Shown here: positions 1 through 44,170 of the stretch, in pieces
Position numbering within the stretch: position 1 is the stretch's first letter
How the letters are laid out: each line of letters begins with the position of its first letter
Assembly: GCA_050948785.1 (NCBI GenBank)
Contig: JBMNEM010000002.1
Location: 193,721-257,720, forward strand
Length of the DNA: 64,000 bases
Source of the DNA: Dethiobacteria bacterium
Lineage (GTDB): Bacteria; Bacillota; Dethiobacteria; DTU022; UBA8154
Direction of reading: 5' to 3'
Made by a program: the position numbers and the translations under genes
Notes under the pieces: model-generated
Database searches by the model: none
What the model was told of the DNA's origin: nothing
What the model saw: only the letters and a program-made list of their open reading frames with translations

Positions 1-1437
1 ATCTTGAAATGGCCGTCCAGCCCCTTGGTCGGCTCATCGAGCAGCAGGATTTGCGGCTCCCGCAGCAGCACCTTGGCCAGGGCGGCACGCTGCTGCTCCC
101 CGCCGCTCAAATCATACGGGTGCATTTTTAGCAGCCCGTCAAGCTCAGTCAGCGCACAAACATCCTGCACCTTTTGCCTTTTTTCCTCTTGGGAAAGCCG
201 TGTGCCCGCCAATATCTCGTATAAATCAAGCTCCACCGTTTTTTTAACAAAGAGGAGCTGCGGATTCTGGGGCAGCATGGCGATCCTGTTTAACACCTGT
301 TCCCGCGCATTCGCCGCGCTTGCTTTTAAAATATCCTGGCCGAGGATACGCACCCGCCCGCGGTAAGGCCTCAGGATACCGCCGATAATGGAAAGGGCGG
401 TGGTTTTTCCGGTTCCGTTGCCGCCGACAATGCCGTAAAATTGTCCCGCAGCCACTTCCAGCGACAAATCCTTCACCGCGTCGGGCAGGTCCCGGTCATA
501 TTTGAACCAGATCTCCTGCAACTGGATGTCGGGCGGCCGCTTGGTGTTTGGCCGCGGAGCAGGCTCCTGGCAGCACTGAGCAGCGGGCGCTTCGTGGGCC
601 CTTGCGTTGATAGGCAAAGCGTTGAGCCATTGACGCCCGTCCTGCACGGTAATCGGGCAGGGCAGATCACTATTCACGCCTGCATAGATCTGGACAGGCG
701 AGGGCATGGCGAGAAACAGATCATGTCTCATCTCCTTTAATCGCTCCCCAGCCCGCCGGGGCGTATCATCAATGATGATCTCACCCTCGTCCATTACCAC
801 CACACGGTCGGACATGGGCAGGACTTCCTCCAGCCGGTGCTCGGTCATGATGATCGTCGTGCCCAGTTCACGGTTGATCTTTTTGACTGTTCCCAGAAAA
901 TCCGCCGCGGCGATGGGGTCGAGCTGGCCTGTCGGCTCGTCGAGCACCAGGACGGAGGGTTGCATGGCCATGATGGACGCCAGGTTTAAGAGCTGTTTCT
1001 GCCCGCCGGAGAGCTCCGCAACATTCTTTCTAAACCAGGTCTGGATGCCGAAAAAACTAGCCATTTCAGCCACGCGCAAGCGGATGGTTTTATTGTCCAT
1101 CCCTAAGGATTCAAGCCCAAAGGCCAGCTCATGCCACACCTTATCGGTAACAATCTGATTGTCCGGATTTTGCAGAACAAAGCCTATACTCGCGGCCTGC
1201 GTGCGCCGGTCGCTTTCGGCCAGTGGCCTGCCCTGAAAAAATATCTCACCCTGAGTTTTCCCATGGGGTGTCAGCACTGTTTTGAGATGACGCAAAAGTG
1301 TGCTCTTACCACTGCCCGACTTCCCGCAGACGGTGATAAATTCGCCCTGCTTCACAGTAAGATTGATCTTCTTGAGCGCCGGCTTTTCCCGCAGCGGATA
1401 GGTAAAGCTTAAAGCCCTGATCTGATATGCTTCCATT
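1..1437 (-). CDS. ABC transporter ATP-binding protein with two tandem ATPase domains (fused ECF EcfA1-EcfA2 / CbiO-like); C-terminus runs off the window edge
   Basis: Minus-strand reading frame open from 1437 (ATG, MEAYQIRALSFTYP...) to position 1. It shows two Walker A motifs (GKSGSGKST and GGNGTGKTT), LSGGQ signatures and Walker B DEPT. It is not in the ORF track because it runs off the edge. Its start overlaps the EcfT stop. Confidence 0.8.
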
Positions 1438-2299
1438 TGAGCTCCTCCGCTAGATCGATAATAACCGGCATCAGACATAGGGCGAGATAGGCGCAGTATA
1501 CGCCGAAACTAAAGGCATCTGGCGGCGGCAGCTTAAGAGACGGGAAAAAACGCATCGTGTTGTATCCCGCTGCCGCGCCCGCGAGTATGATCACCACAAG
1601 CAGCAGCATTGCCCCAAAGACAGTTTGGTCCCGCCGGTCAAACCGGAAAATGGAAAAACTGGTGCGCCCCGGCAACCCGTAGCCCCTCGATTTCATGGAG
1701 TCGGCCGTCTCTATGGCGTTTTCCAGCGCCCAGGTCGTCATTATGGAAAGAATTTGCAAGCCGTTTCTCGCCCGCTCGAAAATATTCCCGTTTGTTACGT
1801 TCCTGCCGATGCCCTGCTGGGCAGTGGAGATGACCTGAATCTGCGCCCTGTACCTGGGAACAAAGCGCAGCACCATGGACAAAACCAGCGACAGCGCGGG
1901 GATAATCCTGCCAAACAAATAAACGAATTTATCCGCAGTCATGACGGCGTTGTAGCAGGAAAACCACAAAATGACGGCCATGAACATAGCGGCCGCCGCC
2001 AGGCCGTAAAGGATGGATTCAAGGGTAACGGGATTGCCGTTTTTCAGGTAAAACAAGATGGTCACGCCAGCGTGGTTAAAAGCGGGATTGATGACTGCCA
2101 TGAGCAGCATGCAGGGCAGCAGGTATAAAAGGTTGAACCTGATAATTTTTTTCCCCTTGAGCAGGGTAGAATACAAAAAAGAACAGGTGAGGGAAACACC
2201 CAAAAATACCGGGTGCATGAAGAACATGGAAAACAGCAGCACCGCGGTGAAATATGTGAAATTTACAACAGGGTGAAAGGTGGAAAATGCATCTTTCAT
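1409..2299 (-). CDS. ecfT: Energy-coupling factor transporter transmembrane component EcfT (CbiQ family)
   Basis: 296 aa polytopic membrane protein with the conserved EcfT C-terminal region (ARxxRG-like ...SRGYGLPGRTSF). It sits immediately upstream of the fused EcfA-A' gene. Confidence 0.8.
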   Translation of the reverse strand: MKDAFSTFHPVVNFTYFTAVLLFSMFFMHPVFLGVSLTCSFLYSTLLKGKKIIRFNLLYLLPCMLLMAVINPAFNHAGVTILFYLKNGNPVTLESILYGLAAAAMFMAVILWFSCYNAVMTADKFVYLFGRIIPALSLVLSMVLRFVPRYRAQIQVISTAQQGIGRNVTNGNIFERARNGLQILSIMTTWALENAIETADSMKSRGYGLPGRTSFSIFRFDRRDQTVFGAMLLLVVIILAGAAAGYNTMRFFPSLKLPPPDAFSFGVYCAYLALCLMPVIIDLAEELKWKHIRSGL

Positions 2300-2301
2300 C
2301 G

Positions 2302-3144
2302 TCAGCTTCCTCCCAGCCCTTCTGCATCCAGATCGCAGCTATACACCCACTCGACCATATCGCCGTCCTGCAGCAGGTAGCAGCTGCAGCCGTAGTTGGG
2401 AGACCAACCGTTCACCTTGTACGTCCAGCCCGACAGCTCCCCGCAATCAAATTCATAGATATTGTTGATGCCCTCAATGTAATGGGAGCTGTGGAGAGGC
2501 GTCAAGACAAATTCCAGATGTATTTTATGCTTTTTCATCTCCCGCTGCAGCACATTAAAAACCGATTCGCCCTCATAAAAAACAACGTTTTGGCAGGGGT
2601 AGATTACACCATCCGGCGGCAGCACCTCCAGCTTATCCTGGTTAAAGCGGTCCATATGAGCAAAGATATCATCACAGCGGACCGTTAAGCTGCAGGTCAG
2701 CTGGGATGCGGTGTCTACGGTCACCTCCTGCCAGGCGGCCGGCGCTGGTTTCCCTTCAGGCGCCGGGTTACTTTGCTGTTGGCTCCCCTCTGTCTTTGGG
2801 GTTGCATCTGCATGATTTACGGCGTTTTTTGCAGCCTCCCTTTCCGTTGTTTCACTTTTGGAGCTGCCGCCGTTAAAAACACCAGGTTCGCCCTGCATCC
2901 CGGTTTCCCTTCCAGCCGGCTGTTCCCCTGTTTCTGCGTCGGGATCCGTACCCGGGGGATACATTTCATTAGTAACAGGGGGCAAGTCTTCCCCGGGCTT
3001 TGTAATCCCTGTTCCGGCAGGCGGGTTCTGCCCCGGTTCAGCAGCTTTTTCGCAATAGTTACCCCCATAAAACCAGGCCGCGGCGAGAACACAAACGACT
3101 ACGGCTGCCACGATTATTTTATTTTTTGAAAGCTTTATCTTCAA
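2302..3144 (-). CDS. DUF4430-domain protein (transcobalamin beta-domain-like, putative cobalamin-binding), N-terminal membrane anchor, low-complexity Pro/Glu/Thr linker
   Basis: C-terminal GWTYKVNGWSPNYGCSCYLLQDGDMVEWVY motif typical of DUF4430. N-terminal hydrophobic segment. It lies between the SLH protein and ecfT in a riboswitch-controlled operon. Confidence 0.65.
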   Translation of the reverse strand: MKIKLSKNKIIVAAVVVCVLAAAWFYGGNYCEKAAEPGQNPPAGTGITKPGEDLPPVTNEMYPPGTDPDAETGEQPAGRETGMQGEPGVFNGGSSKSETTEREAAKNAVNHADATPKTEGSQQQSNPAPEGKPAPAAWQEVTVDTASQLTCSLTVRCDDIFAHMDRFNQDKLEVLPPDGVIYPCQNVVFYEGESVFNVLQREMKKHKIHLEFVLTPLHSSHYIEGINNIYEFDCGELSGWTYKVNGWSPNYGCSCYLLQDGDMVEWVYSCDLDAEGLGGS

Positions 3145-3174
3145 TGCACATCCCGTCCTTCATAATGCAAGACA

Positions 3175-4818
3175 CTAGCCGAGCGCCGCTTTTTGCAGCA
3201 TTCGATAAACCATGGCGGCGATCTCCGCGCGGGTGATAGCTTCCTGCGGTTTAATTTGCAAAACCTCTGCAGAAAGTATCGCCTGCTGATAGCAAAAGGC
3301 CAAGGGCTCTCCGGCCCAGGCGGAACAAGAAGTATAATCGGGAAACTGCGCCAGCAGATCGCGAATTTCTGTGGCAGTGGGGGCCGTATGCAGGCCGCAA
3401 AGCCTTGCCGCCTGGGCAACCATTACCGCCGCCTGTTCACGGGTAATGGTGCCCCCCGGTGTAAAAGTAGTCTCCGAGGTGCCGTGCACGATCCCATAAG
3501 CATGGGCCGTTGCGACAGCATCTGCATACCAGCTCGTTGCAGCCACATCGGCAAAAACAGCACCCCCTGCCGGAGCAAGCCCCAGTGCCCGCACGACGAG
3601 TGCAGCAAACTCTGCCCGCGTCATGGTGCGTCCGGGCTCAAAGAAAAGGTCGCTGACCCCGCTGATTATACCGCGGGCCGCCAGCGCTTCAATAGCCGCC
3701 TGCTCTTTTAGCCCCTTGATATCTGCAAAGGTTTTACCGGGATTGCAAACCGGGCGGGCTGTCACTGCAGGATCCTTCCCGGGCAGCCCTGCTGCAGCTG
3801 CATTTTGTTCCACAGCAGAAACCTGCACATCGCTCATCTCATAAAAGCCGGTCTTCCCTTTGAGAAAACGATCATAAGCAACCAGGCCGCAAAAAGCCTG
3901 TTCCGTAGCCATAGCGTCCGGCTCCGACTGGGTCAGGATATGTTTGAAACCTCCCCCCGGCACAAAATAGTGCAGCAAATGATCGACAACAGTGTTGCCG
4001 TTCTTAATAAAACGGGCGTCGGCAACAGGATCAATGCCCAGTGCAGTCAGGGCAATAAGCACCTGCGTAACACCTTCCACATTGGCCGCCTCCCAGTAGC
4101 TGGTATAACTGCCATCGCTATTTTGAAGCCTGGAAAGGCAGGTAAGCGCCCGCTCGATCACCTTTTTAATTTCAGCCCGTTCCTGATAGGGTGCCAGTGC
4201 CTGCAGCGCCATCGCCGTAACATCCGCATCACCTGTCCTGCCGCCCAGCGAAAACCCCCCGTCAGCAAGCTGTAGTTCAGTAATAGCCCCGAGCAGCCGC
4301 TCACGCACAACCTGTATCTGCTCACCGGCATGGTCCGGAAAAACATGATGCCACGCATCGAAGGCCAACAGGGCAAAAAGGGGGCCGTTAATACCCTGCA
4401 GGAAGACGTTATCAAAGTCGCCCAGCCTGGCCAGCAGATCATATCCTCCCACATCCGCAGGATTTTTGCCGATAGCAGTCAGAGCTAAGATAGCGCGAGA
4501 GTATTCCGTATATTTATTACCAGGCAGAACGCCCTGATTTTTTACAATTTCATCTTCCAGGGACTGATAATACGCCGTATACCAGCCCGCCGGCACCTTA
4601 AGCCCGGACCGTGCCAGACCGATTAGCGCCCATTCACCGCCAACAGAACCAACCCGGGGACTTTGCACTTTTTTTAACAGATAAGCGCCGGTATCCTTTA
4701 GAGCCTTTTCCAGCGTAACCGGAGCCGCAGCAGCCGGTGCTGCCAAAACGGGAAAACTACTGCTAAGAAAGAGGCAAAGCGTCAGCAGAACTACCAAAAT
4801 ATTTTTAGCCCTGTTCAT
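3175..4818 (-). CDS. S-layer-homology (SLH) surface protein with prenyltransferase/squalene-cyclase-like alpha/alpha-barrel repeats
   Basis: Signal peptide (MNRAKNILVVLLTLCLFLSSSFPVLAAPA), repeated QxxDGGF/QNSDGSY-type alpha-barrel motifs, and C-terminal SLH repeats (FADIKG...AAIEALAARGIISG; FADVAATSWYADAV). Confidence 0.75.
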   Translation of the reverse strand: MNRAKNILVVLLTLCLFLSSSFPVLAAPAAAAPVTLEKALKDTGAYLLKKVQSPRVGSVGGEWALIGLARSGLKVPAGWYTAYYQSLEDEIVKNQGVLPGNKYTEYSRAILALTAIGKNPADVGGYDLLARLGDFDNVFLQGINGPLFALLAFDAWHHVFPDHAGEQIQVVRERLLGAITELQLADGGFSLGGRTGDADVTAMALQALAPYQERAEIKKVIERALTCLSRLQNSDGSYTSYWEAANVEGVTQVLIALTALGIDPVADARFIKNGNTVVDHLLHYFVPGGGFKHILTQSEPDAMATEQAFCGLVAYDRFLKGKTGFYEMSDVQVSAVEQNAAAAGLPGKDPAVTARPVCNPGKTFADIKGLKEQAAIEALAARGIISGVSDLFFEPGRTMTRAEFAALVVRALGLAPAGGAVFADVAATSWYADAVATAHAYGIVHGTSETTFTPGGTITREQAAVMVAQAARLCGLHTAPTATEIRDLLAQFPDYTSCSAWAGEPLAFCYQQAILSAEVLQIKPQEAITRAEIAAMVYRMLQKAALG

Positions 4819-4879
4819 TTAACCACCCTTTCAGAACATCCGACTTGTCATTTTCTTTTTTGAATCAACGTTCTCGCGC

Positions 4880-5032
4880 CTAGAGCTTGATCGACTGCGT
4901 CACCTTTTCCACCCTGACCGGCTGCCCTTCCTGCACCATGATTTTCAGCCTGCCAAAATCGGTGCTGCGTATAATTTCAATGACCTTTTTTTCCTTTGAG
5001 CTTAACCCCGTACCCGTTATCTGTTCATCCAT
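4880..5032 (-). CDS. Small DUF2292/YezD-like protein (50 aa), not in the ORF track
   Basis: Minus-strand ATG at 5032 preceded by GGAGGGAGG. It translates to MDEQITGTGLSSKEKKVIEIIRSTDFGRLKIMVQEGQPVRVEKVTQSIKL. It is a paralogue of the 5560-5716 product (shared ...GQPVRVE...SIKL) and lies between riboswitch 1 and the SLH gene. Confidence 0.55.
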   Translation of the reverse strand: MDEQITGTGLSSKEKKVIEIIRSTDFGRLKIMVQEGQPVRVEKVTQSIKL

Positions 5033-5167
5033 GGCCTCCCTCCTCACACCGTCTTTATTTCACAGACCGGGCCGGCCTGCAGTCCACAAAAGTTTTACCT
5101 CCCATGATCTGTTTGTGTAGGTGTAACATCATTAATATCATTGTTCTATCGACAAATAACAACATAT

Positions 5168-5212
5168 AAAAAACCCCGGCTTTTCCATGCAAAGCGGGGC
5201 TTTTTGCTGTAA
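5168..5212 (-). terminator. Intrinsic terminator/attenuator hairpin of riboswitch 1 expression platform (also terminator-like on the plus strand)
   Basis: On the minus strand: GCCCCGCTTTGCATGGAAAAGCCGGGG followed by TTTTTTATATG. The homologous element at 9820-9862 follows riboswitch 2. Confidence 0.45.
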
Positions 5213-5244
5213 AAGAAATCACTTTCTTAAACAGACAATATCCA

Positions 5245-5435
5245 ATTCACATACACCTTTGCACGGAAGGCTTGTGGAAAACATTTACCGGGCAGGTCTC
5301 CTGGCTTGCAGCTCATCACTTGCTTTCACCTTCCCGAAGAGGCTCTCCAGTGGCATATAATGAAAGTAAATTCCCTGCTTACAGTGGCCGGACCACCCGG
5401 GATTTTCACCCGGTTCCCTTTCAACCCGATTTGGC
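5245..5435 (-). promoter_or_regulatory. Cobalamin (AdoCbl) riboswitch 1
   Basis: The reverse complement contains AAAGGGAACCGGGTGAAAATCCCGG ... GCCACTGTAAGC ... ATGCCACTGGAGAG ... GGGAAGGTGA ... AGCCAGGAGACCTGCC, i.e. the GGTGAAAATCC core plus the B12 box GCCACTG. It is upstream of DUF2292 gene 1 and the SLH/DUF4430/ECF operon. Confidence 0.8.
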
Positions 5436-5559
5436 ATCGGATCTACCCTGATAAAACCTTTATTCAATTTTTTAAATTAAACTTCAACCTTATTTAAAAA
5501 ACGGAAACACTATTCCAGTTTAAAATTGGAATAGCGCCTCCGTTGTTCGGTCAGCACCT

Positions 5560-5716
5560 TTAAAGCTTAATTGACTTTTTGATTTCTTCAACCCGTACAG
5601 GCTGCCGATCTTCTACCGCAATAACCATTTCACCATAACTGATTCCGCGCAGAATCCGGATAAACTTTCTTTCCCTGGGGGTTAATTCATCATTAAAGCC
5701 GTTATTCACTGTTTTG
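5560..5716 (-). CDS. Small DUF2292/YezD-like protein (about 52 aa; TTG start after AGAGAGGTG). The longer 5560-5811 ORF overlaps the riboswitch and is probably over-extended.
   Basis: C-terminal region ...FIRILRGISYGEMVIAVEDRQPVRVEEIKKSIKL is paralogous to the 4880-5032 product. Riboswitch 3 lies directly upstream. Confidence 0.5.
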
Positions 5717-5724
5717 CTTACAGC

Positions 5725-5905
5725 CAAGTTAAACACCTCTCTATTTCCCGTAGAGTTTCTGGTGCAAAAAACAGGCAGGCTTTCTGGCTTCGGGTCATCG
5801 CTCTCCCCCACCTTCCCGGTTTCCCAGTGGCATTCCGGGGGAAACTTCCCCTTTTACAGCGGCGGAACCGCGCGGGATTTTCACCCGCTTTCCTTTTACC
5901 GGCAT
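5725..5905 (-). promoter_or_regulatory. Cobalamin riboswitch 3
   Basis: The reverse complement contains GGTGAAAATCCCGCGCGGTTCCGCCGCTGTAAAAGGGGAAG...AATGCCACTGGGAAACCGGGAAGGTGG...AAGCCAGAAAGCCTGCC. No separate terminator is present, so control probably acts at translation. Confidence 0.75.
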
Positions 5906-6093
5906 GGACTATATTCCAGTGCATACTCCTGACCGGCACCTGTTTATGAAATAATCTTCAATTAAGAACATAATATCCCAACAGCCCCCTCTTGTCAATA
6001 ACCGGTTCTCCCCCATCTAAAAGCCTTTGGGGCTGCCCTTGTATTAAAGAGCAGCCCTTTAGCTGTGTCAGCATATCTGTATAGGCGGAAAAA

Positions 6094-9000
6094 CTACTCC
6101 AAGGGGGAAAGCCGGTAAAGCATCACCGCCGCCTGGGCACGGTTGGCATTTTGCAAGGGGGCAAAAGTGCCATCTCCCATGCCGGTTATAATCCCCTGAA
6201 TTGTGCAAAGGCCAACACCGTCTTTTGCCCACACTGCAATCTCATCCCTATCGCTGAAAATCCCCAGTTCCTGTGCAGCAGCTCCCTCAGATCCTTCCGG
6301 GCGGAGAACCCTGCCGATAATCGCAGCCATCTCCTGCCGGGTGATTGAACTTTCCGGATCGAATACCGTTGCGCTTCTGCCGCTGAGGATGCCATGATGG
6401 TATGCCCGGGCCACAGCTTCGTAATACCAGCTATTTACATGAACATCGGTAAAAGGCAGCTCCATCCCCGTATCATTGTAACCCAGCAAACGGGTAACCA
6501 AGGCGGCGAATTCTGCACGGGTAATCCGGGCACCGGGCTCAAAAACCCCTTCCCCCCGGCCGCTGATAATCCCCGCGGCGGAAAGTACCCCGATGGCCTC
6601 CCTGGCCCATTCATAGCCCTGCAAGTCGGTAAAAGGTATTTTAGTTTCTTTTTCCTGAGACTGCATGACAGTATAGAAGCTTAGGTGGTCTGTGAAGAAA
6701 GCAAATGTCTGCGTTTCCGGATCGTACTCCCCGCCCAGGCCGATAGGCACCAGAAGGCCCTCACCGTCATTTTCCAGTCGCACTCCTGTTAACCAGGCGC
6801 TTTGTTCCGGAGACAGCTTACCTAAGTGGGAAAAGTCTATAGTTATTTTTATCGGTTTGCTATATTTATCAAGTTCTTTTCCAGTGTTCCGCTCCTCCTG
6901 GGCGGTGTCAACCACCGTCAGGGTTATCTCATAAATCCCGCTTCCAACACCGACAAACCCGGCAGTTCCCTCCGGCACGTCTTTGGAAAGGATCTCCTGC
7001 TGTTTGTTGGCAGCGAGTTCCTGGACAAACACCTCTATCTGCGAATTATCGGCGGCGGTTAGCCGGGCAAATTCCTCGGTTAACAAAGCACCGCCGGCCA
7101 GTTCAACCTTAATACCCTTGTTTTCTAGCACGATCGCATGTTCTTCATTAACATTTTTAAGAAAATCCGGTGAAAAAAGCACTTTCCCGTCGGCCTTTTC
7201 CTCAAGGCTGAGCTTGGCTACGCCTGTTTGCTGCAGGTTTTCCTGCAAGGCCCGGTCATCAGCTGAAGAAGGTTGGAAGGTTTCCTTTGTTGCCCCCCCA
7301 CCGCCTCCTCCGCTACTACTCCATCCTTCCGAACCTTCCTCTTTTGTAAAATCATCAGTATAATAAAAAACCACGGCATCGCCTTGTTTCAACAAATATT
7401 CGTTTAGAGCCAGCGTAGTATGTTTACCATTGACCTTGTACATCCAACCACTAAGGGGGCCTTTGTCAAGTTCGTTAAGCCATTCCCCACTGGGCGCTTT
7501 GATGCCACTGACATAGCTGTCGTAAGACGCCCTGTATTCCATGCCTTTTTCAGATAGCACTTTGTCAAACATATCAAAGACCGTAGCCCCCTGCGGCATC
7601 TCCACACTGGTAGTTGGTATCCAGGTCTGCCCGCTATCACCGGTGAGTTTGAAGGTGACGGTAATATTACTTTCCTCGCTAGAGCCACCTGTACCTTCAT
7701 AGGTTACCGCTACGGTTGTATCTGCAGTTATGGTGAAGGTATATTTGTTATCCTCCAGGTCTGCTTTCTTGTCTTCACCGTTGACGGTAAAGGTGGCTAC
7801 CTGCTTGCCTGCCGGAGCTGTTACCGTTATCGTTACTGCAGTGTTCTCTTCAATTTCTCCAGCATCAGAAGTTGATGTTAATCCTTCGCCTGTTAAGGTT
7901 AAAGTGTAAGTAGCCGGTTCCGCTGTTTCGATCTTTAGTATAAACTCTTCGCTGGCAGCATCCCCCCCCAGGGCAGCAGCCCCGGCCTGGATGCTGATCT
8001 CGCCAACTGCAGCGGTACCTGTAAAAGCGACGGTCACCTTTTGAGCAGCGTCTTTGGTGATTTCCTCAACAGAAAGCCCGGTTTCTCCGGTATCAATTGT
8101 CCAGTTGTCCAGATCTTTTGTTTCTGCCGGATCTGCATATTCATCACCAACCAGGTTTATTTCAACCCGGGGATCTACCTCGCCGACGTCAATAACCGCT
8201 TCGCTAGAAAGTACAGGCCACCTGCTGTAGTAGAAGAACACCTCATCATTTTCTTGAACAATATAGTCGGCAGCACCAACGTCAGGGGAAACCCCGTTTA
8301 CTGTGTACGTCCAACCGTCCCAGCCGCCAAAAGCACCATTTTCCTCACCTGCAATAGAGTTGACCAAAATACCCCAATCAAAATACTGCAATTCATAGGG
8401 AATCCCCTTGGCATCCAAGCCCTGCTCCAGAACATCAAGGGCCGTCGGCTGATCGCCGGTGGTCAGCACTTCAACTTCTGCAGTAGGAAAAATTGTTTCC
8501 GTCTTTCCTTCCACCGTTAACTTCACAACTACCTTTTGGGGCTCGGCAAACTGTATCTGGCCCATTCTATGCCTTGTGGATTCACCATGTTTTAAATCTG
8601 CCAGGGCCAAAAGGGCCTGCACGGTGCTCATTTTTACCCCACCGGCAGTACCCTCTTTATACCAAAAACTGCCGTCCTCCTGCTGGTATTTTAGCAGGAC
8701 GTCAAGCACTGTTTGGCCATCTTTTACCCATCGCCCTTCCGGGTTCAGCACATCTTCTCCCACAGCAACTAATCCGGAGATAACTGCAGCGTTGGAATTA
8801 CAGTTTTCCTCTCCCCACATGCCCTCCAAAGCAAAACCGGCGTTGTCCTGCTGCTTACTATGCAGGAAGTCAATGGCTTTTCCAATTGCTTCCTGTGCAT
8901 TGGATTTTTTCTGGTGGTTGGATAAAGCCGTCAGCGCCCAGCCCGTATAGTCCAACTGGCTGAAGGCTCCAAAGCTGCCATCATCGTTTTGCTGGTTGAT

Positions 9001-9564
9001 CAGGTGCGTTATAGCCATCAGCTGACATTGAGTATTACCCCAGCCATCCACAACACCAAGTTCTTCGCCCACATCCAAAAGTACTATGGCCCAGATATGC
9101 TTTCCCAGGTCGCCAAATGCGCCGTCTGGTGGAATCTGGGGAGGACGCCGCTGCTGATCCGCCAGTTCTGCAAAAAGGTTCCTGCCGTTCCATATGTCGG
9201 CAGGGTTTTTCCCCACTGCCAGCAGCTTGAAAATGTAATAAATGTGCTCGTTTCCTGTTGTATTCGCTGCAAACCCGGGATCGTTCTCCCGCCACCCCTG
9301 GCCAGTCCCCCACGGTGCTTCATTTAAATCCTCACCAACGCCCCAAAGCGCCGGCAAACCTTCCCAGGAGTCGGGTGAAGGGTGGTTCGTTTGATACCAA
9401 GCGACTGCATTTGCTATCGATGCCTCCAAATCTGCTCCTGTTTCAACACCGCCACTGCCGGCCATAACAGGCAATGGACCTATTATAGAAAAGATCATGA
9501 ACAGGCTTAAAAAATATACCGGCCATTTTTTCAACACGCTTCGCTTTAATAACAACCTTAACAA
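6094..9564 (-). CDS. Large S-layer-anchored surface protein: signal peptide, prenyltransferase-like alpha-barrel domain, two DUF4430 domains, Ig-like/Thr-rich repeats, three C-terminal SLH domains
   Basis: 1156 aa. DUF4430 motifs GWTYTVNGVSPDVGAADYIVQENDEVFFYY and SGWMYKVNGKHTTLALNEYLLKQGDAVVFYY. SLH repeats at the C-terminus (FTDLQGYEWAREAIGVLSAAGIISG etc.). Preceded by riboswitch 2. Confidence 0.8.
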   Translation of the reverse strand: MLRLLLKRSVLKKWPVYFLSLFMIFSIIGPLPVMAGSGGVETGADLEASIANAVAWYQTNHPSPDSWEGLPALWGVGEDLNEAPWGTGQGWRENDPGFAANTTGNEHIYYIFKLLAVGKNPADIWNGRNLFAELADQQRRPPQIPPDGAFGDLGKHIWAIVLLDVGEELGVVDGWGNTQCQLMAITHLINQQNDDGSFGAFSQLDYTGWALTALSNHQKKSNAQEAIGKAIDFLHSKQQDNAGFALEGMWGEENCNSNAAVISGLVAVGEDVLNPEGRWVKDGQTVLDVLLKYQQEDGSFWYKEGTAGGVKMSTVQALLALADLKHGESTRHRMGQIQFAEPQKVVVKLTVEGKTETIFPTAEVEVLTTGDQPTALDVLEQGLDAKGIPYELQYFDWGILVNSIAGEENGAFGGWDGWTYTVNGVSPDVGAADYIVQENDEVFFYYSRWPVLSSEAVIDVGEVDPRVEINLVGDEYADPAETKDLDNWTIDTGETGLSVEEITKDAAQKVTVAFTGTAAVGEISIQAGAAALGGDAASEEFILKIETAEPATYTLTLTGEGLTSTSDAGEIEENTAVTITVTAPAGKQVATFTVNGEDKKADLEDNKYTFTITADTTVAVTYEGTGGSSEESNITVTFKLTGDSGQTWIPTTSVEMPQGATVFDMFDKVLSEKGMEYRASYDSYVSGIKAPSGEWLNELDKGPLSGWMYKVNGKHTTLALNEYLLKQGDAVVFYYTDDFTKEEGSEGWSSSGGGGGGATKETFQPSSADDRALQENLQQTGVAKLSLEEKADGKVLFSPDFLKNVNEEHAIVLENKGIKVELAGGALLTEEFARLTAADNSQIEVFVQELAANKQQEILSKDVPEGTAGFVGVGSGIYEITLTVVDTAQEERNTGKELDKYSKPIKITIDFSHLGKLSPEQSAWLTGVRLENDGEGLLVPIGLGGEYDPETQTFAFFTDHLSFYTVMQSQEKETKIPFTDLQGYEWAREAIGVLSAAGIISGRGEGVFEPGARITRAEFAALVTRLLGYNDTGMELPFTDVHVNSWYYEAVARAYHHGILSGRSATVFDPESSITRQEMAAIIGRVLRPEGSEGAAAQELGIFSDRDEIAVWAKDGVGLCTIQGIITGMGDGTFAPLQNANRAQAAVMLYRLSPLE

Positions 9565-9904
9565 GAAAATCTCCTCCCTTTGGTTTCTGCTTTCCTGTTT
9601 TCAAAACGTTTCCTTAAAATACTTTTTATAAGGCTGAAAATTTACTGGGTTACATCTCCCCTTCCCCTTTGTTTGATCGTTAGCCGGCCTCCCCTCAACC
9701 GCCTACTACCCACCTTTTGGCGTTATGATTAGGACGGTTTTTCTACAGCACAAACCTTAATTTTTGTTGTTTGTAATCAACCCCCTGGCCATCACTTATG
9801 ACAGCTCTAAAAGACGCTACAAAGCCCCGGCTTCCATGCACAGCCGGGGCTTTTATGCTGCAATAAAAGAATTGGCCTTTTAAACAGGCATTTTTCCAGC
9901 TCAC

Positions 9905-10080
9905 CCAGACCTTTGCACGGAAGGCTTGTGAAGTATCGTCAAGGCAGGTTTCCTGGCTTGTGGCTCATCGTAGCTTTCACCTTCCCGGATAGCTCCAGTG
10001 GTATGCTGAAAGCTGCTCCCCACTTACAGTGGCCGGACCACCCGGGATTTGCACCCGGTTCCCTCTTCCACCCGCTCCTG
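9905..10080 (-). promoter_or_regulatory. Cobalamin riboswitch 2 (paralogue of riboswitch 1, about 85% identical)
   Basis: Same aptamer sequence as 5245-5435 (GGTGCAAATCCCGG ... GCCACTGTAAG ... GCCACTGGAGCTATCCGGGAAGGTGAAAGC). A terminator-like hairpin at 9820-9862 follows it on the minus strand. Confidence 0.8.
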
Positions 10081-10149
10081 TCAGCGGATCACCTTGACAA
10101 TGTTGTTTTAAATATTAATTTTAGAAGATACTTTTCAATTTTTCCATAA

Positions 10150-10200
10150 AAAAAGGCACTATCCTGGATAGTGCCTCCGTTGTTCGGTCAGCATAACAAA
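10150..10200 (-). terminator. Intrinsic terminator (GGCACTATCCAGGATAGTGCC + T7) downstream of the 10421-11185 gene. A homologous module (CTGACCGAACAACGGAGG + hairpin) sits at 5500-5555.
   Basis: Perfect 9-bp stem with a T-run on the minus strand. The shared flanking sequence shows the leader modules were duplicated as units. Confidence 0.45.
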
Positions 10201-11470: not shown

Positions 11471-14400
11471 TTACCTTTTATATTTTCAACAGCGATGATG
11501 ATCTCACTCCGCAAGTCTTTTATTCGTTGCTCAATACGCTCTAAATAATCATCGCCCAAAAATCGCCGAAGGGTTTCCAACTCGGCACGGAAACGTTTCA
11601 TTCCCCTTTTGGAAACTTTTCCATCCATTTCTTCTATCGTCAGCCGGCGTAAGGTATACTTTGGTAAGGTCTGGTACTCCTTTAAATCGCGCAGCAGGGT
11701 TTGAATAAAGGGCAGGTATTCTTCCAAATCGGCAGCATGCTTTTCCCAGGCACTGCGTAGGTTGTTTTCGGCCTTGACAAGCAAAGATTGTTCACTGGGG
11801 CGCATGTGTATTTGCTCACGGTAGTTCTTGATTGCCTCGTAAGCGGGCCAAAATAAAGGACTTAGGGTCTCGCGGGGCGTTTCTGGCCAGCAGTGAACAC
11901 ACGGCAGCGCTTTTTCAAGAATTAGGGGACGTACCACTGGCTTTTTGCTTGCCGTATCAGGTACGGTGTGGATAAAAAGCTGCAAACCTTTCCGGCGGAA
12001 GACCAGCAGTTCATTTTGTTTGGCTATTTTCGCCGTTTTCACCCTTGCGGGAAAATCAGCCAGCCCGGAGATCAAGTCCGGGTATTGCGCCTGCATTGCA
12101 AAAAATTCCCGCCGGAGCGTCGTCAGCAGGCTTTCCTCTTCGCCTTCCTCCGGATTACGGTTGATGCGTCTGAAAAGTTCGGCGGGGGAAGGGGTTTCAT
12201 CCGGAGCAAAAATTTTCGCATCTTCACCCAGGGTATTGTGGATCAAGAACATCTTCTGTGCTGCTATTTCACGGCTTTTAACCACTTCAGCGCCCTGTTC
12301 CGTTGGAAAAAAGTTATAGATATACAATGTCCGGAAGACCTTGCGCCCAATACGGTTGATGCGTCCCAGCCGCTGAATGACACGCGTAGGGTTCCAGGGA
12401 ATATCATAGTTAACCACCGCACCGGCCCGGTTCAGGTTTATCCCTTCAGAAAGTTTATCAGTAGCCACGAGGATATCGAAATCATCACGCTGCCTTTCTG
12501 CCGCATGGCCGGCATCGAAATTGGCATTCAGATCATCGAAAAAACCCTTGCCCAGCGAACCTTCAGCTACCAGCACACGTTCAGGAAAGGCGGCCTGCAA
12601 AACGGGGGCAATGTGTTTCACTGTATCCTGATATTCGCTGAAAATAACAACCTTGCGGCGCGGTTCACCGCTACCGGGTTGGGCTTCTATAATCTCCCGC
12701 ACAGCTTCCACAAGGCGTTTGCTTTTCGGATCGTTCACTGCCAGTTCCAAAGCCTCCACCCGATCGGCAATTTGTTGGAACAGCTCCAGATCTGAGCGGA
12801 TATCCGCAAGGAACTGTTCCGGTTCATCAAAATCTTTAATAACATAAACGTGATCCTGGTGCGGCCTCAGGTTTTTTTCTGCCGCCAGGCGCGCCGCGAA
12901 TTGCCGCAGCTCCTCCTCGATGGTTTCTTCGTCTTCTTCCCAGATTTTTTCTATTAAATTTCGGTCCAGAATATATTGGCCTGTTTTTTGGATGAAAGCC
13001 AAAATAATAGAATGAACGCTCCTAAAATTAGCCATGCTTTTGACAAAAGCGCCAAAGGAACTTTCGAAACGTTTGACCAACAGCCGGCGCATAAATTCGT
13101 ACAGGTTGCGCTGCTGCAGGTAGGCAAAATTACCCTTTTCATCCAGCTGTTCTAATTCACTGCTGTGTTCGTAAGCAAAGGGCTGGTAAATGGCACCCCG
13201 GAATTGTCCTTCCTCGCCGAAATATTCATTAATTACCTGGTTGTAGAAAGCCGATTGTGCGGTAGTTAGTTCGTAAAACAGCTCAACGGGATCGGCAACC
13301 CCGGAGAGCTTGGCAATTTCCTGGGCATACACCGGATCGCGTTTCAGGTCGAGCCGGTTACGGCGGATGATAACAGGTTCTATAACCGCACGGATTTCAT
13401 CTGCCAGCTGCCTTACCCGTTGCTGGGTGCGAATTACATTGATAGGCGGCGGGGTTTCAAAAATATCGGTATAGAATCTTTCAGCCCGGGCTTGTTTTTC
13501 ACCACCGGCGCTGTGGTAACGGAGGATGTATGAAAGCTTGCGGAATTCACTATTGTACCGGGCAAAGCGGGCAGCCAGCCCTTCATCAAGGGTCAGCGTT
13601 GATTTGCCCGGCGGGATAAAAAGTTTGAGCAGGGCAAAAATATCTGCCGGCGCATTGTTGAAAGGAGTTGCCGTCAACAGGATAACACCCCGGTTGGCAC
13701 AGATCTGGCTTAGGCGTTCATAAGCCGCCGTGTCTTCATTGCGGAAGCGGTGTGCCTCATCCACCACAATAGTAGTGACCTCCTCGCCGTACATTTCAAG
13801 ATATTCCTGTACCTTGTCCAAAGCCCCCAGGGAATAGACTTCCCAGTCATATAGTTCAAAGTCGTTCAGGTATTTATACCAGCCGGTAGCTTTGGTTTGT
13901 CGATCACCGATCAAAGCCGGGGGGCAGATCACAAGCCCGCGGCCACCTCGTTCCCGCGCCAGCCAACTGGCGATCACCGATTTCCCCAGCCCAACCACGT
14001 CGGCCAAGATCACGCCGCCATATTCCTCCAGCACGGTGAGCGCCTGCTGCACGGCCTCTTCCTGGTAACGATACACCCTGTAGCCCCGTTCTTCCATTAA
14101 ATGTTTAATCTGCGGGCGAAGCACTTTTTGTTCCATCAAATCCAGGTAGGTTTTAAGCACCAGGGCGTAAGCCTCAAAAGGCGAAATTCCCGCCACCTGG
14201 GTTTGCCGATTGATGATACGGACAATCTGCTCCTTGCGTTCATCAAGTTCGCTAAGCGGGATAGCTGTCGACCACAGATCGTCAAAATATGCTTCCGCAT
14301 CTCCCCAACCATAATCGCTGATTTCCACGTTGAATTCATGCTGCCCCAACAAACCGGCGCGGGTCAGATTGCTGGAACCGGTAATAAAGCGCCCGGGCGC

Positions 14401-43214: not shown

Positions 43215-43420
43215 TTGCTGAATGCACAGCAACGAAATTGAATAGTGAAACGATGTGAGTGAATGGAAAGTGGGTGAAAGTCCCACACAGTCGCCGCTGC
43301 TGTAAGCATTACACGCGCTTATCATTATGCCACTGGAGAAATATTTACTCTGGGAAGGCGGTAAGTGTTAGATGCGAGTCAGAAGGCCGGCTCTCATCGG
43401 TTTGTCAGACCTTTCGGTGC
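43215..43420 (+). promoter_or_regulatory. Cobalamin riboswitch 4 (plus strand), orphan: no ORF downstream
   Basis: AATGGAAAGTGGGTGAAAGTCCCACACAGTCGCCGCTGCTGTAAGC ... TCATTATGCCACTGGAGAAATATTTACTCTGGGAAGGCGGTAAGTG...AGTCAGAAGGCCGGC parallels riboswitches 1-3 (GGTGAAA.TCC core, GCCACTGGAG...GGGAAGG). ORF 43259-43552 merely overlaps it. Confidence 0.65.
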
Positions 43421-43949: not shown

Positions 43950-44012
43950 AAAAAACCCCCATAAATGGTATAATAGGTACGACCAAATACCGACCATTAG
44001 GGGGTTTTTTCA
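43950..44012. terminator. Bidirectional intrinsic terminator-like hairpin (A6-CCCCCATAAATGG...CCATTAGGGGG-T6)
   Basis: G/C-rich stem flanked by an A-run and a T-run. It lies between the plus-strand riboswitch region and the 3' end of the minus-strand V-ATPase operon. Confidence 0.4.
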
Positions 44013-44170
44013 TGCTTCGACTAGAGCCAAAGCAATTAAGTTTTCACTCATCATTATACAATAAAATTCCGGAAAATCATATACTAAAAAAGGTGGAATC
44101 AGTAGTGGACTTTAGTTTTATCAATGGTTTGTTAAAAAGATACCTATTGTAAAGAATTTGGGCGACCTGC

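Follow-up and report, generated by a model that had tools for sequence, protein, structure and literature searches.

Two genes of about 50 codons, each placed directly behind a cobalamin (vitamin B12) riboswitch, raise the question of what so small a protein could contribute to a response that an RNA sensor already controls. They lie in a 64-kb stretch of a Dethiobacteria genome (assembly GCA_050948785.1, contig JBMNEM010000002.1, positions 193,721 to 257,720; hereafter the window, whose numbering is used throughout), where the two open reading frames, ORF1 and ORF2, and all their local features are on the minus strand. Both encode proteins of the DUF2292/YezD family, which was originally described as lacking an assigned function; the literature searched on DUF2292, YezD and PF10055 indeed holds few mentions and assigns no role. 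The answer that we favour, with a probability of roughly 0.45, is that DUF2292 small proteins are RNA-binding antiterminators, made only when the riboswitch is open, whose target would be a conserved RNA hairpin that overlaps an intrinsic terminator after the gene in most loci.

ORF1 and ORF2 are confirmed as real genes for basic proteins of about 50 amino acids (aa) of the DUF2292/YezD family. ORF1 stands as proposed in the original prediction, with its coordinates, length and ribosome-binding site (GGAGGGAGG; Table 1); it starts with ATG and is conserved in relatives. ORF2 had been given the correct 3′ end, at 5560, and the correct type of start codon, TTG, but the start at position 5716, for a product of about 52 aa, is out of frame (157 nucleotides (nt), with seven stops); the in-frame TTG lies at 5727, with a GAGGTG ribosome-binding site 6 nt upstream, and a GTG at 5709 offers an alternative start. 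The two proteins are paralogues, 46% identical over 41 aa (expectation value (E) 9e-13), and do share the C-terminus QPVRVE..SIKL that had first linked them. Ratios of nonsynonymous to synonymous substitution rates (dN/dS, Nei-Gojobori) of 0.16–0.24 for ORF1 and 0.06–0.21 for ORF2 indicate purifying selection, not the behaviour of non-coding sequence, and the tandem order riboswitch-ORF2-riboswitch-ORF1 is kept in two other genomes (L001 and L004); tandem conservation and low dN/dS therefore mark both as selected coding genes rather than chance reading frames.

A profile search against PF10055 bears out the proposed family membership for ORF1, which scores 26.8 bits (E 3.9e-6; Pfam cut-off 22 bits). 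ORF2 on its own scores 15.4 bits (E 0.014), below that cut-off, and 76 bits against a profile of the subfamily to which both belong, 62 of whose 73 members match PF10055 at E ≤ 0.01. In size and architecture these proteins resemble PF10055/YezD; unlike canonical YezD (..VQDGRVIQIEKNEKIRL, found in sulfur operons), they form a distinct subfamily that ends in ..PVRVEEIKKSIKL, inhabits Clostridia-type genomes and is tied to cobalamin riboswitches. An exhaustive profile search returned 482 representative clusters at E ≤ 1e-3, all of 42–136 aa with the domain at the C-terminus, as befits stand-alone small proteins, under the consensus LTEKEKKLIelIRxlxYGEirIvVQDGqPVRVEEIKKSIKL; databases name the relatives 'DUF2292 domain-containing' or 'YezD family'. 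Conservation spans the whole length of the peptide, across classes and phyla. Neither protein contains Cys, His, a transmembrane segment or a signal peptide, and the AlphaFold model of ORF1 predicts, with moderate confidence (predicted local distance difference test score 75), a helix (residues 12–23) followed by a beta-hairpin (28–44). DUF2292 is the only significant Pfam match, and searches of NCBIfam and, by tblastn, of a plasmid collection gave none. In two relatives, P0034 (115 aa) and P0146 (73 aa), a pair of DUF2292 domains is naturally fused (predicted template modelling score 0.60 for a single-sequence AlphaFold model of P0034), which suggests a dimer as the working unit.

Each ORF is, as the original prediction held, the first cistron behind a cobalamin riboswitch, both matching the RF00174 covariance model (gathering score 31.5 bits) with the agreement of an independent nhmmer model. 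The survey that it had called for, of DUF2292 genes behind RF00174 matches, proceeded from a C-terminal peptide pattern with one genome per species and returned 55 loci, all Clostridia-type bar one Armatimonadota metagenome-assembled genome (MAG) and one Lutibacter-labelled record. On the same strand, a riboswitch lies within 500 nt upstream of the small ORF in 33 of the 55, making the link a trait of the subfamily; it lies 600–1000 nt upstream in five and 2–3 kb upstream in four. In these nine loci the small ORF sits deeper, several having CbiZ, CbiM, an energy-coupling factor (ECF) ATPase or NrdDG in between. One locus has a match on the opposite strand only, and none was found in 12, two of which carry sub-threshold matches to the adenosylcobalamin (AdoCbl) variant; an Rfam search of the 55 loci revealed no other riboswitch class. 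The genes downstream encode mostly large surface proteins with DUF4430, SLH, Flg_new or cohesin domains, together with ExbB-like/DUF2149 pairs and ECF modules.

Such company could mean that the small protein is a corrinoid-handling accessory, for instance an escort or adaptor that serves the ECF transporter in the cytoplasm, or one that helps the surface DUF4430 binders, a role that had been proposed beside control of the downstream operon. Riboswitch control of the small gene and its co-transcription with DUF4430/SLH surface proteins, ECF modules and CbiZ agree with it; we nonetheless consider it very improbable, as the protein has only about 45 structured residues and no Cys or His, ORF2 is a one-gene unit closed by its own terminator, one small gene comes after nrdDG (L039), and the wider family, with the same RNA element, occurs in sulfate/cysteine operons without B12 riboswitches. 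It is the other proposed role, operon control, that the RNA downstream of the small genes favours.

That RNA is a motif of 26–28 nt conserved after most of the small ORFs and composed of a paired element P1, a GA/A internal loop, a second paired element P2 and an A-rich loop (consensus nnnC-UGA-CCRG-AAAA-CYGG-AG-Gnnn, with a CCG-AACAA-CGG variant), with a strong hairpin and U run behind it. In 43 of 56 loci the motif lies 0–42 nt past the stop codon, and a limit of 134 nt takes in 45 of the 56. Of 63 small ORFs, 42 have behind them a hairpin of −12 kcal/mol or better with a U run. The 3′ strand of P1 and the adjoining 'AG' are the first bases of the terminator 5′ arm, and motif and terminator are therefore mutually exclusive, a conserved element overlapping a terminator in the manner of antitermination systems. 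Folding energies are −8 to −11 kcal/mol for the motif alone and −16 to −26 kcal/mol for the terminators; given this difference, termination should be the default unless the motif is stabilised. In two loci (L018 and L024) the next gene begins about 83–88 nt after the small ORF and must thus be transcribed only by read-through of the terminator. No Rfam family matched the motif, and the literature searched describes neither this RNA nor a function for the riboswitch-linked small protein.

Covariation supports the structure. As MAFFT misregistered the 11-nt and 12-nt hairpins, the alignment was parsed by fixed offsets, so that covariation in the P1 columns is unbiased: 84% of cells are paired (67.5% in shuffles), 78 cells show double changes (32 in shuffles), and the covariation score of 0.467 compares with 0.212 in shuffles (0/500) and 0.05–0.10 in slid controls. 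In an independent set from metagenomes, bases that can pair occupy the free flanking positions in 86 of 89 cases (GC 63, AU 13, GU/UG 8), and the R/Y (purine/pyrimidine) pair is never A-C. Several known elements were considered and rejected as identities of the motif: a kink-turn (its GA pairs would have the wrong strand polarity), a functional Shine-Dalgarno sequence (GGAGG itself varies, to GGAAG, CGAAGG and GCAGG), a PyrR site, L10 leader or Na+ riboswitch (Rfam matches far below threshold), and a part of the cobalamin riboswitch (present in 11 of 120 motif loci among the matches listed).

The closeness of gene and motif could also be explained in cis, by translational attenuation, with ribosomes that translate the small ORF to its stop codon, as they could only when the riboswitch is open, blocking the terminator and the ORF being no more than a long leader peptide or upstream open reading frame (uORF). 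In most cases no other cistron separates the small ORF from the riboswitch, its stop codon is often just 0–15 nt from the motif, and in Mycobacterium tuberculosis a B12 riboswitch is known to act through uORF translation (PMC11260477). There, as here, the cobalamin riboswitch is immediately followed by a short ORF, which passes the decision on to the downstream genes; unlike in that system, where translation itself matters and the peptide belongs to no conserved family, the protein here is conserved across phyla and occurs also without riboswitches. A dispensable peptide would hardly show conservation over its whole length across classes and phyla, dN/dS of 0.06–0.24 and a predicted fold. The distance from stop codon to motif, moreover, runs from 0 to 56 nt and beyond, with a whole gene intervening in L183, L179 and L052; some motifs have no ORF at all, and genes of the ORF1 type have no terminator after them. 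Attenuation is, on this evidence, quite unlikely.

If the small protein reads the motif, the association should be visible from the RNA side as well. Metagenomes were scanned for an exact 19-mer DNA pattern of the motif, which gave at least 120 loci and 121 instances. Among the matches listed, a terminator starts at GGAGG in 98 of the 121, and 40 of these 98 motif-terminator instances have a DUF2292-family ORF just upstream, many of them of the canonical YezD type (..VQDGRVIQVEKNEKIRL..). These canonical ORFs were missed by the first subfamily hidden Markov model and recovered by an iterated profile, the canonical-type profile being built from the same loci that were then scored with it. About 20 of the 121 matches are coding or chance occurrences (LTGKPEE, for example) that lack a terminator, and were set aside. 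Orphan motifs occur in 5′ leaders that promoter-like sequences precede, an arrangement in keeping with a factor that acts in trans. In two loci, L110 and L149, a riboswitch (starting 285 nt and 350 nt upstream of the motif, respectively) is followed by the hairpin-terminator with no recognisable small ORF between; these elements are candidate trans targets.

The canonical branch extends the association beyond B12. A word-indexed search returned 4,169 canonical proteins (90%-identity cluster representatives), with PF10055 present in all 120 of those listed. Three lineages examined from the protein side, L179 (Geotalea daltonii FRC-32), L183 and L185, carry a canonical DUF2292 gene in sulfur-assimilation operons with a NifH-like gene immediately after it, in contexts that include Rrf2-Sbp-DUF2292-NifH-like, cysPTWA-DUF2292-NifH-like and PALP-DUF2292-NifH-like, Sbp being a sulfate-binding protein and PALP resembling cysteine synthase. 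Other genes downstream of the canonical type encode MetK, an AprA-like protein and an anion porin. Geotalea has two DUF2292/NifH-like pairs. All three operons contain a match to the motif, after the small gene or after the next one, at 23.9–26.7 bits in two lineages and weakly in Geotalea (15.1 bits, E 0.06, a UCA variant). The motif-bearing sulfur operons of canonical YezD have no B12 riboswitch, and the small protein is the sole partner that the motif has in both settings, B12 and sulfur. Gene and putative target are thus linked from the protein side, from the motif side and in the canonical lineages.

The mechanism that we propose starts from scarcity of B12, when the unliganded riboswitch would permit expression of ORF1 or ORF2, which lead an island for B12 scavenging that encodes DUF4430/toroid surface proteins anchored in the S-layer and an ECF transporter. 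Probably acting as a dimer, the small protein would bind the 26–28-nt hairpin just 3′ of its own gene and keep it closed, so that the terminator cannot form and RNA polymerase reads on into the next unit, here riboswitch 1, ORF1, the surface proteins and the ECF transporter. It may act also at orphan copies of the motif, such as the one ahead of riboswitch 3. A two-step cascade from riboswitch to antiterminator protein would reserve the costly surface proteins for sustained shortage. We infer both the binding of protein to RNA and that its effect is antitermination rather than something else.

Known systems lend this proposal its logic. HutP, of the Bacillus subtilis hut operon, is a histidine-dependent protein of 148 aa that forms hexamers and recognises UAG repeats. 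In that operon too the gene for the regulator comes first, directly ahead of its RNA target and an intrinsic terminator, and the structural genes are reached only by read-through. In the BglG/SacY/LicT proteins a dimeric co-antiterminator (CAT) domain of about 55 aa suffices for antitermination, in an all-beta fold with phosphotransferase-system regulation domains attached, and its ribonucleic antiterminator (RAT) target is an imperfect hairpin of about 29 nt with internal loops, whose 3′ part overlaps the terminator 5′ arm, the same geometry as that of the motif and terminator described here. It is because the layout of regulator first and target-terminator next is that of HutP and BglG that a small antiterminator is favoured. 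The differences are equally plain: HutP has no similarity in sequence or fold, and the signal input here is a riboswitch before the regulator gene; the DUF2292 protein, predicted as helix plus beta-hairpin, is not detectably related to CAT, nor is its RNA related in sequence to RAT. Pfam, Protein Data Bank (PDB) sequence (ORF1 giving no match) and Foldseek searches showed no homology to a known antiterminator, and the likeness to HutP and BglG is therefore an analogy in working, not membership. In Enterococcus and Listeria, an AdoCbl riboswitch small RNA sequesters the ANTAR antiterminator EutV, whose class recognises paired hexaloop hairpins. That system likewise wires a B12 riboswitch to a protein antiterminator (a putative one in our case) in two tiers of control; unlike here, the riboswitch controls a decoy RNA and not the synthesis of the antiterminator.

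Several observations weigh against the antiterminator reading. ORF1 itself, like its orthologues, has neither motif nor terminator after the gene, and in Geotalea and L183 the motif stands behind the NifH-like gene rather than behind the small ORF. Foldseek searches with the ORF1 model and with a natural two-domain fusion matched no solved fold, RNA-binding or otherwise (all E > 0.1); weak rows for AbrB/MazE/SpoVT (E > 5) were regarded as noise. The genome survey, owing to its C-terminal pattern, covers the 'SIKL' subfamily only. No DUF2292 gene lies within 700 nt in 58 of the 98 motif-terminator instances among the matches listed, so that the reader of the motif could be some other factor or a small ligand. 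The motif-terminator would then be a tiny riboswitch embedded in a terminator, or the site of another protein, and the small protein would merely share the transcript, with some other role under nutrient limitation. In size the invariant GA/A internal loop matches those that small aptamers use, many of the instances without the gene are 5′ leaders behind promoter-like sequences, and the genes downstream of orphan copies are diverse, all in keeping with such a reader. A riboswitch acting on downstream genes would, however, give no reason for one 50-aa family to stand immediately upstream as often as it does in both searches, and protein and motif occur together in two subfamilies and in the unrelated regulons for B12 and for sulfur. 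We regard this alternative as unlikely.

The features on which the antiterminator proposal draws are collected in Table 1 with their neighbours. ORF2 and its terminator are followed by riboswitch 1, and a promoter scan of the interval between found none. A predicted hairpin (CACC..CUCUA/UAGAG..GGUG) masks the ribosome-binding site of ORF2, in a leader whose fold is not significant (z −0.14). The covariance model finds exactly two copies of the motif in the window, both in the B12 island, and the order of element and then riboswitch seen at the orphan copy recurs in L001 (14120, riboswitch at 14184) and L146 (12172, riboswitch 117 nt on).

Table 1. Positions in the 64-kb window of the small genes, their RNA elements and neighbouring features
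Feature	Position	Strand	Description
Orphan RNA motif copy	10170..10195	−	No small ORF before it; 27.8 bits, E 1.5e-5; ~60 nt before riboswitch 3
Intrinsic terminator on orphan motif	10145..10178	−	−16.5 kcal/mol; U run ~35 nt before riboswitch 3
Cobalamin riboswitch 3	9926..10111	−	119.7 bits; ahead of 1156-aa SLH/DUF4430 gene
1156-aa SLH/DUF4430 surface protein gene	6094..9564	−	Behind riboswitch 3
Promoter-like site	5970..5998	−	TTGACA-17-TATTAT, 11/12; upstream of riboswitch 2
Cobalamin riboswitch 2 (RF00174)	5757..5958	−	98.5 bits; directly upstream of ORF2
ORF2	5560..5727	−	55 aa, in-frame TTG start, basic (isoelectric point (pI) 9.7), DUF2292-like
RNA motif copy 1	5533..5558	−	AACAA loop; starts 4 nt after ORF2 stop; alone −10.9 kcal/mol; 27.8 bits, E 1.5e-5
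Intrinsic terminator after ORF2	5494..5544	−	18-bp stem and U run, −26 kcal/mol, z −5.6; 5′ arm is motif 3′ half
Cobalamin riboswitch 1 (RF00174)	5274..5465	−	114 bits; directly upstream of ORF1, ~30 nt after ORF2 terminator
Putative expression platform of riboswitch 1, terminator type	5168..5205	−	GCCCCGC..GCCGGGG and U run
ORF1 ribosome-binding site	5035-5043	−	Ends 2 nt before ATG
ORF1	4880..5032	−	50 aa, ATG start, basic (pI 9.3), DUF2292 protein
547-aa surface protein	3175-4818	−	SLH and alpha/alpha toroid; downstream of ORF1
280-aa DUF4430 protein	2302-3144	−	In operon downstream of ORF1
296-aa protein	1409-2299	−	Clusters with 296/297-aa gene just before ECF ATPase in L001 and L004
Cobalamin riboswitch 4	43240-43409	+	82 bits

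Riboswitches 1–3 and the surface-protein genes identify the roughly 10.2 kb down to the start of the window as a B12-scavenging island. From 1409 to 10111 (minus strand), it holds three cobalamin riboswitches and S-layer-anchored proteins that join a prenyltransferase-like alpha/alpha toroid to DUF4430, the domain pair found also in eukaryotic transcobalamin and intrinsic factor. The operon runs on into ECF transporter genes in L001 and L004, and in a relative whose ORF1 is 78% identical it goes on to an ECF ATPase and S component. Downstream of riboswitch 4, elsewhere in the window, no credible coding gene lies on the same strand: the ORF that comes next on the plus strand, 44012-44152, looks like a transposase fragment, and the genes beyond are on the opposite strand. 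Its regulated gene may have been lost, or the arrangement may be antisense.

Two further observations concern the surveyed relatives. A Desulfitobacteriaceae MAG (L006) packs six cobalamin riboswitches into about 4 kb (3324-7367), with close pairs at 3324-3513/3661-3846 and 6879-7065/7183-7367. Pairs of MotA/ExbB-like and DUF2149 genes occur beside DUF4430 proteins in apparently Gram-positive operons (L041 at 5456-6404, L019, L042, L044, L055 and L057), linked to a riboswitch in L019, L041 and L042, and suggest an energised uptake step.

A wider claim, which we put forward more tentatively, is that DUF2292/YezD together with the P1-GA/A-P2 hairpin on an intrinsic terminator constitutes a widespread class of minimal antitermination switch that depends on a protein and has so far gone unrecognised. 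Present at least in Clostridia and Geobacteraceae, it would form a second tier beneath the primary sensors, which are cobalamin riboswitches in Clostridia and regulation of the Rrf2 type or by sulfur in Geobacter, with orphan copies as its regulon in trans. The principle of antitermination is known; the protein family, the RNA and the wiring in series with a riboswitch appear to be new. The motif is an RNA element absent from Rfam that has covariation support from two independent sequence sets, and genes shorter than 60 aa such as ORF1 are routinely missed in annotation, which the analysis would improve if its reading is correct. DUF2292/YezD, a large family of tiny proteins with almost no literature, now has a hypothesis that can be tested at the bench, with a putative 26-nt RNA partner, GGUGCUGACCGAACAACGGAGGCGCU, and a terminator. 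If it is true, a riboswitch can act in series with a protein antiterminator of minimal size, the pair would offer a compact two-part switch for synthetic biology, and the gating of long, costly operons for B12 scavenging and sulfur starvation would be explained.

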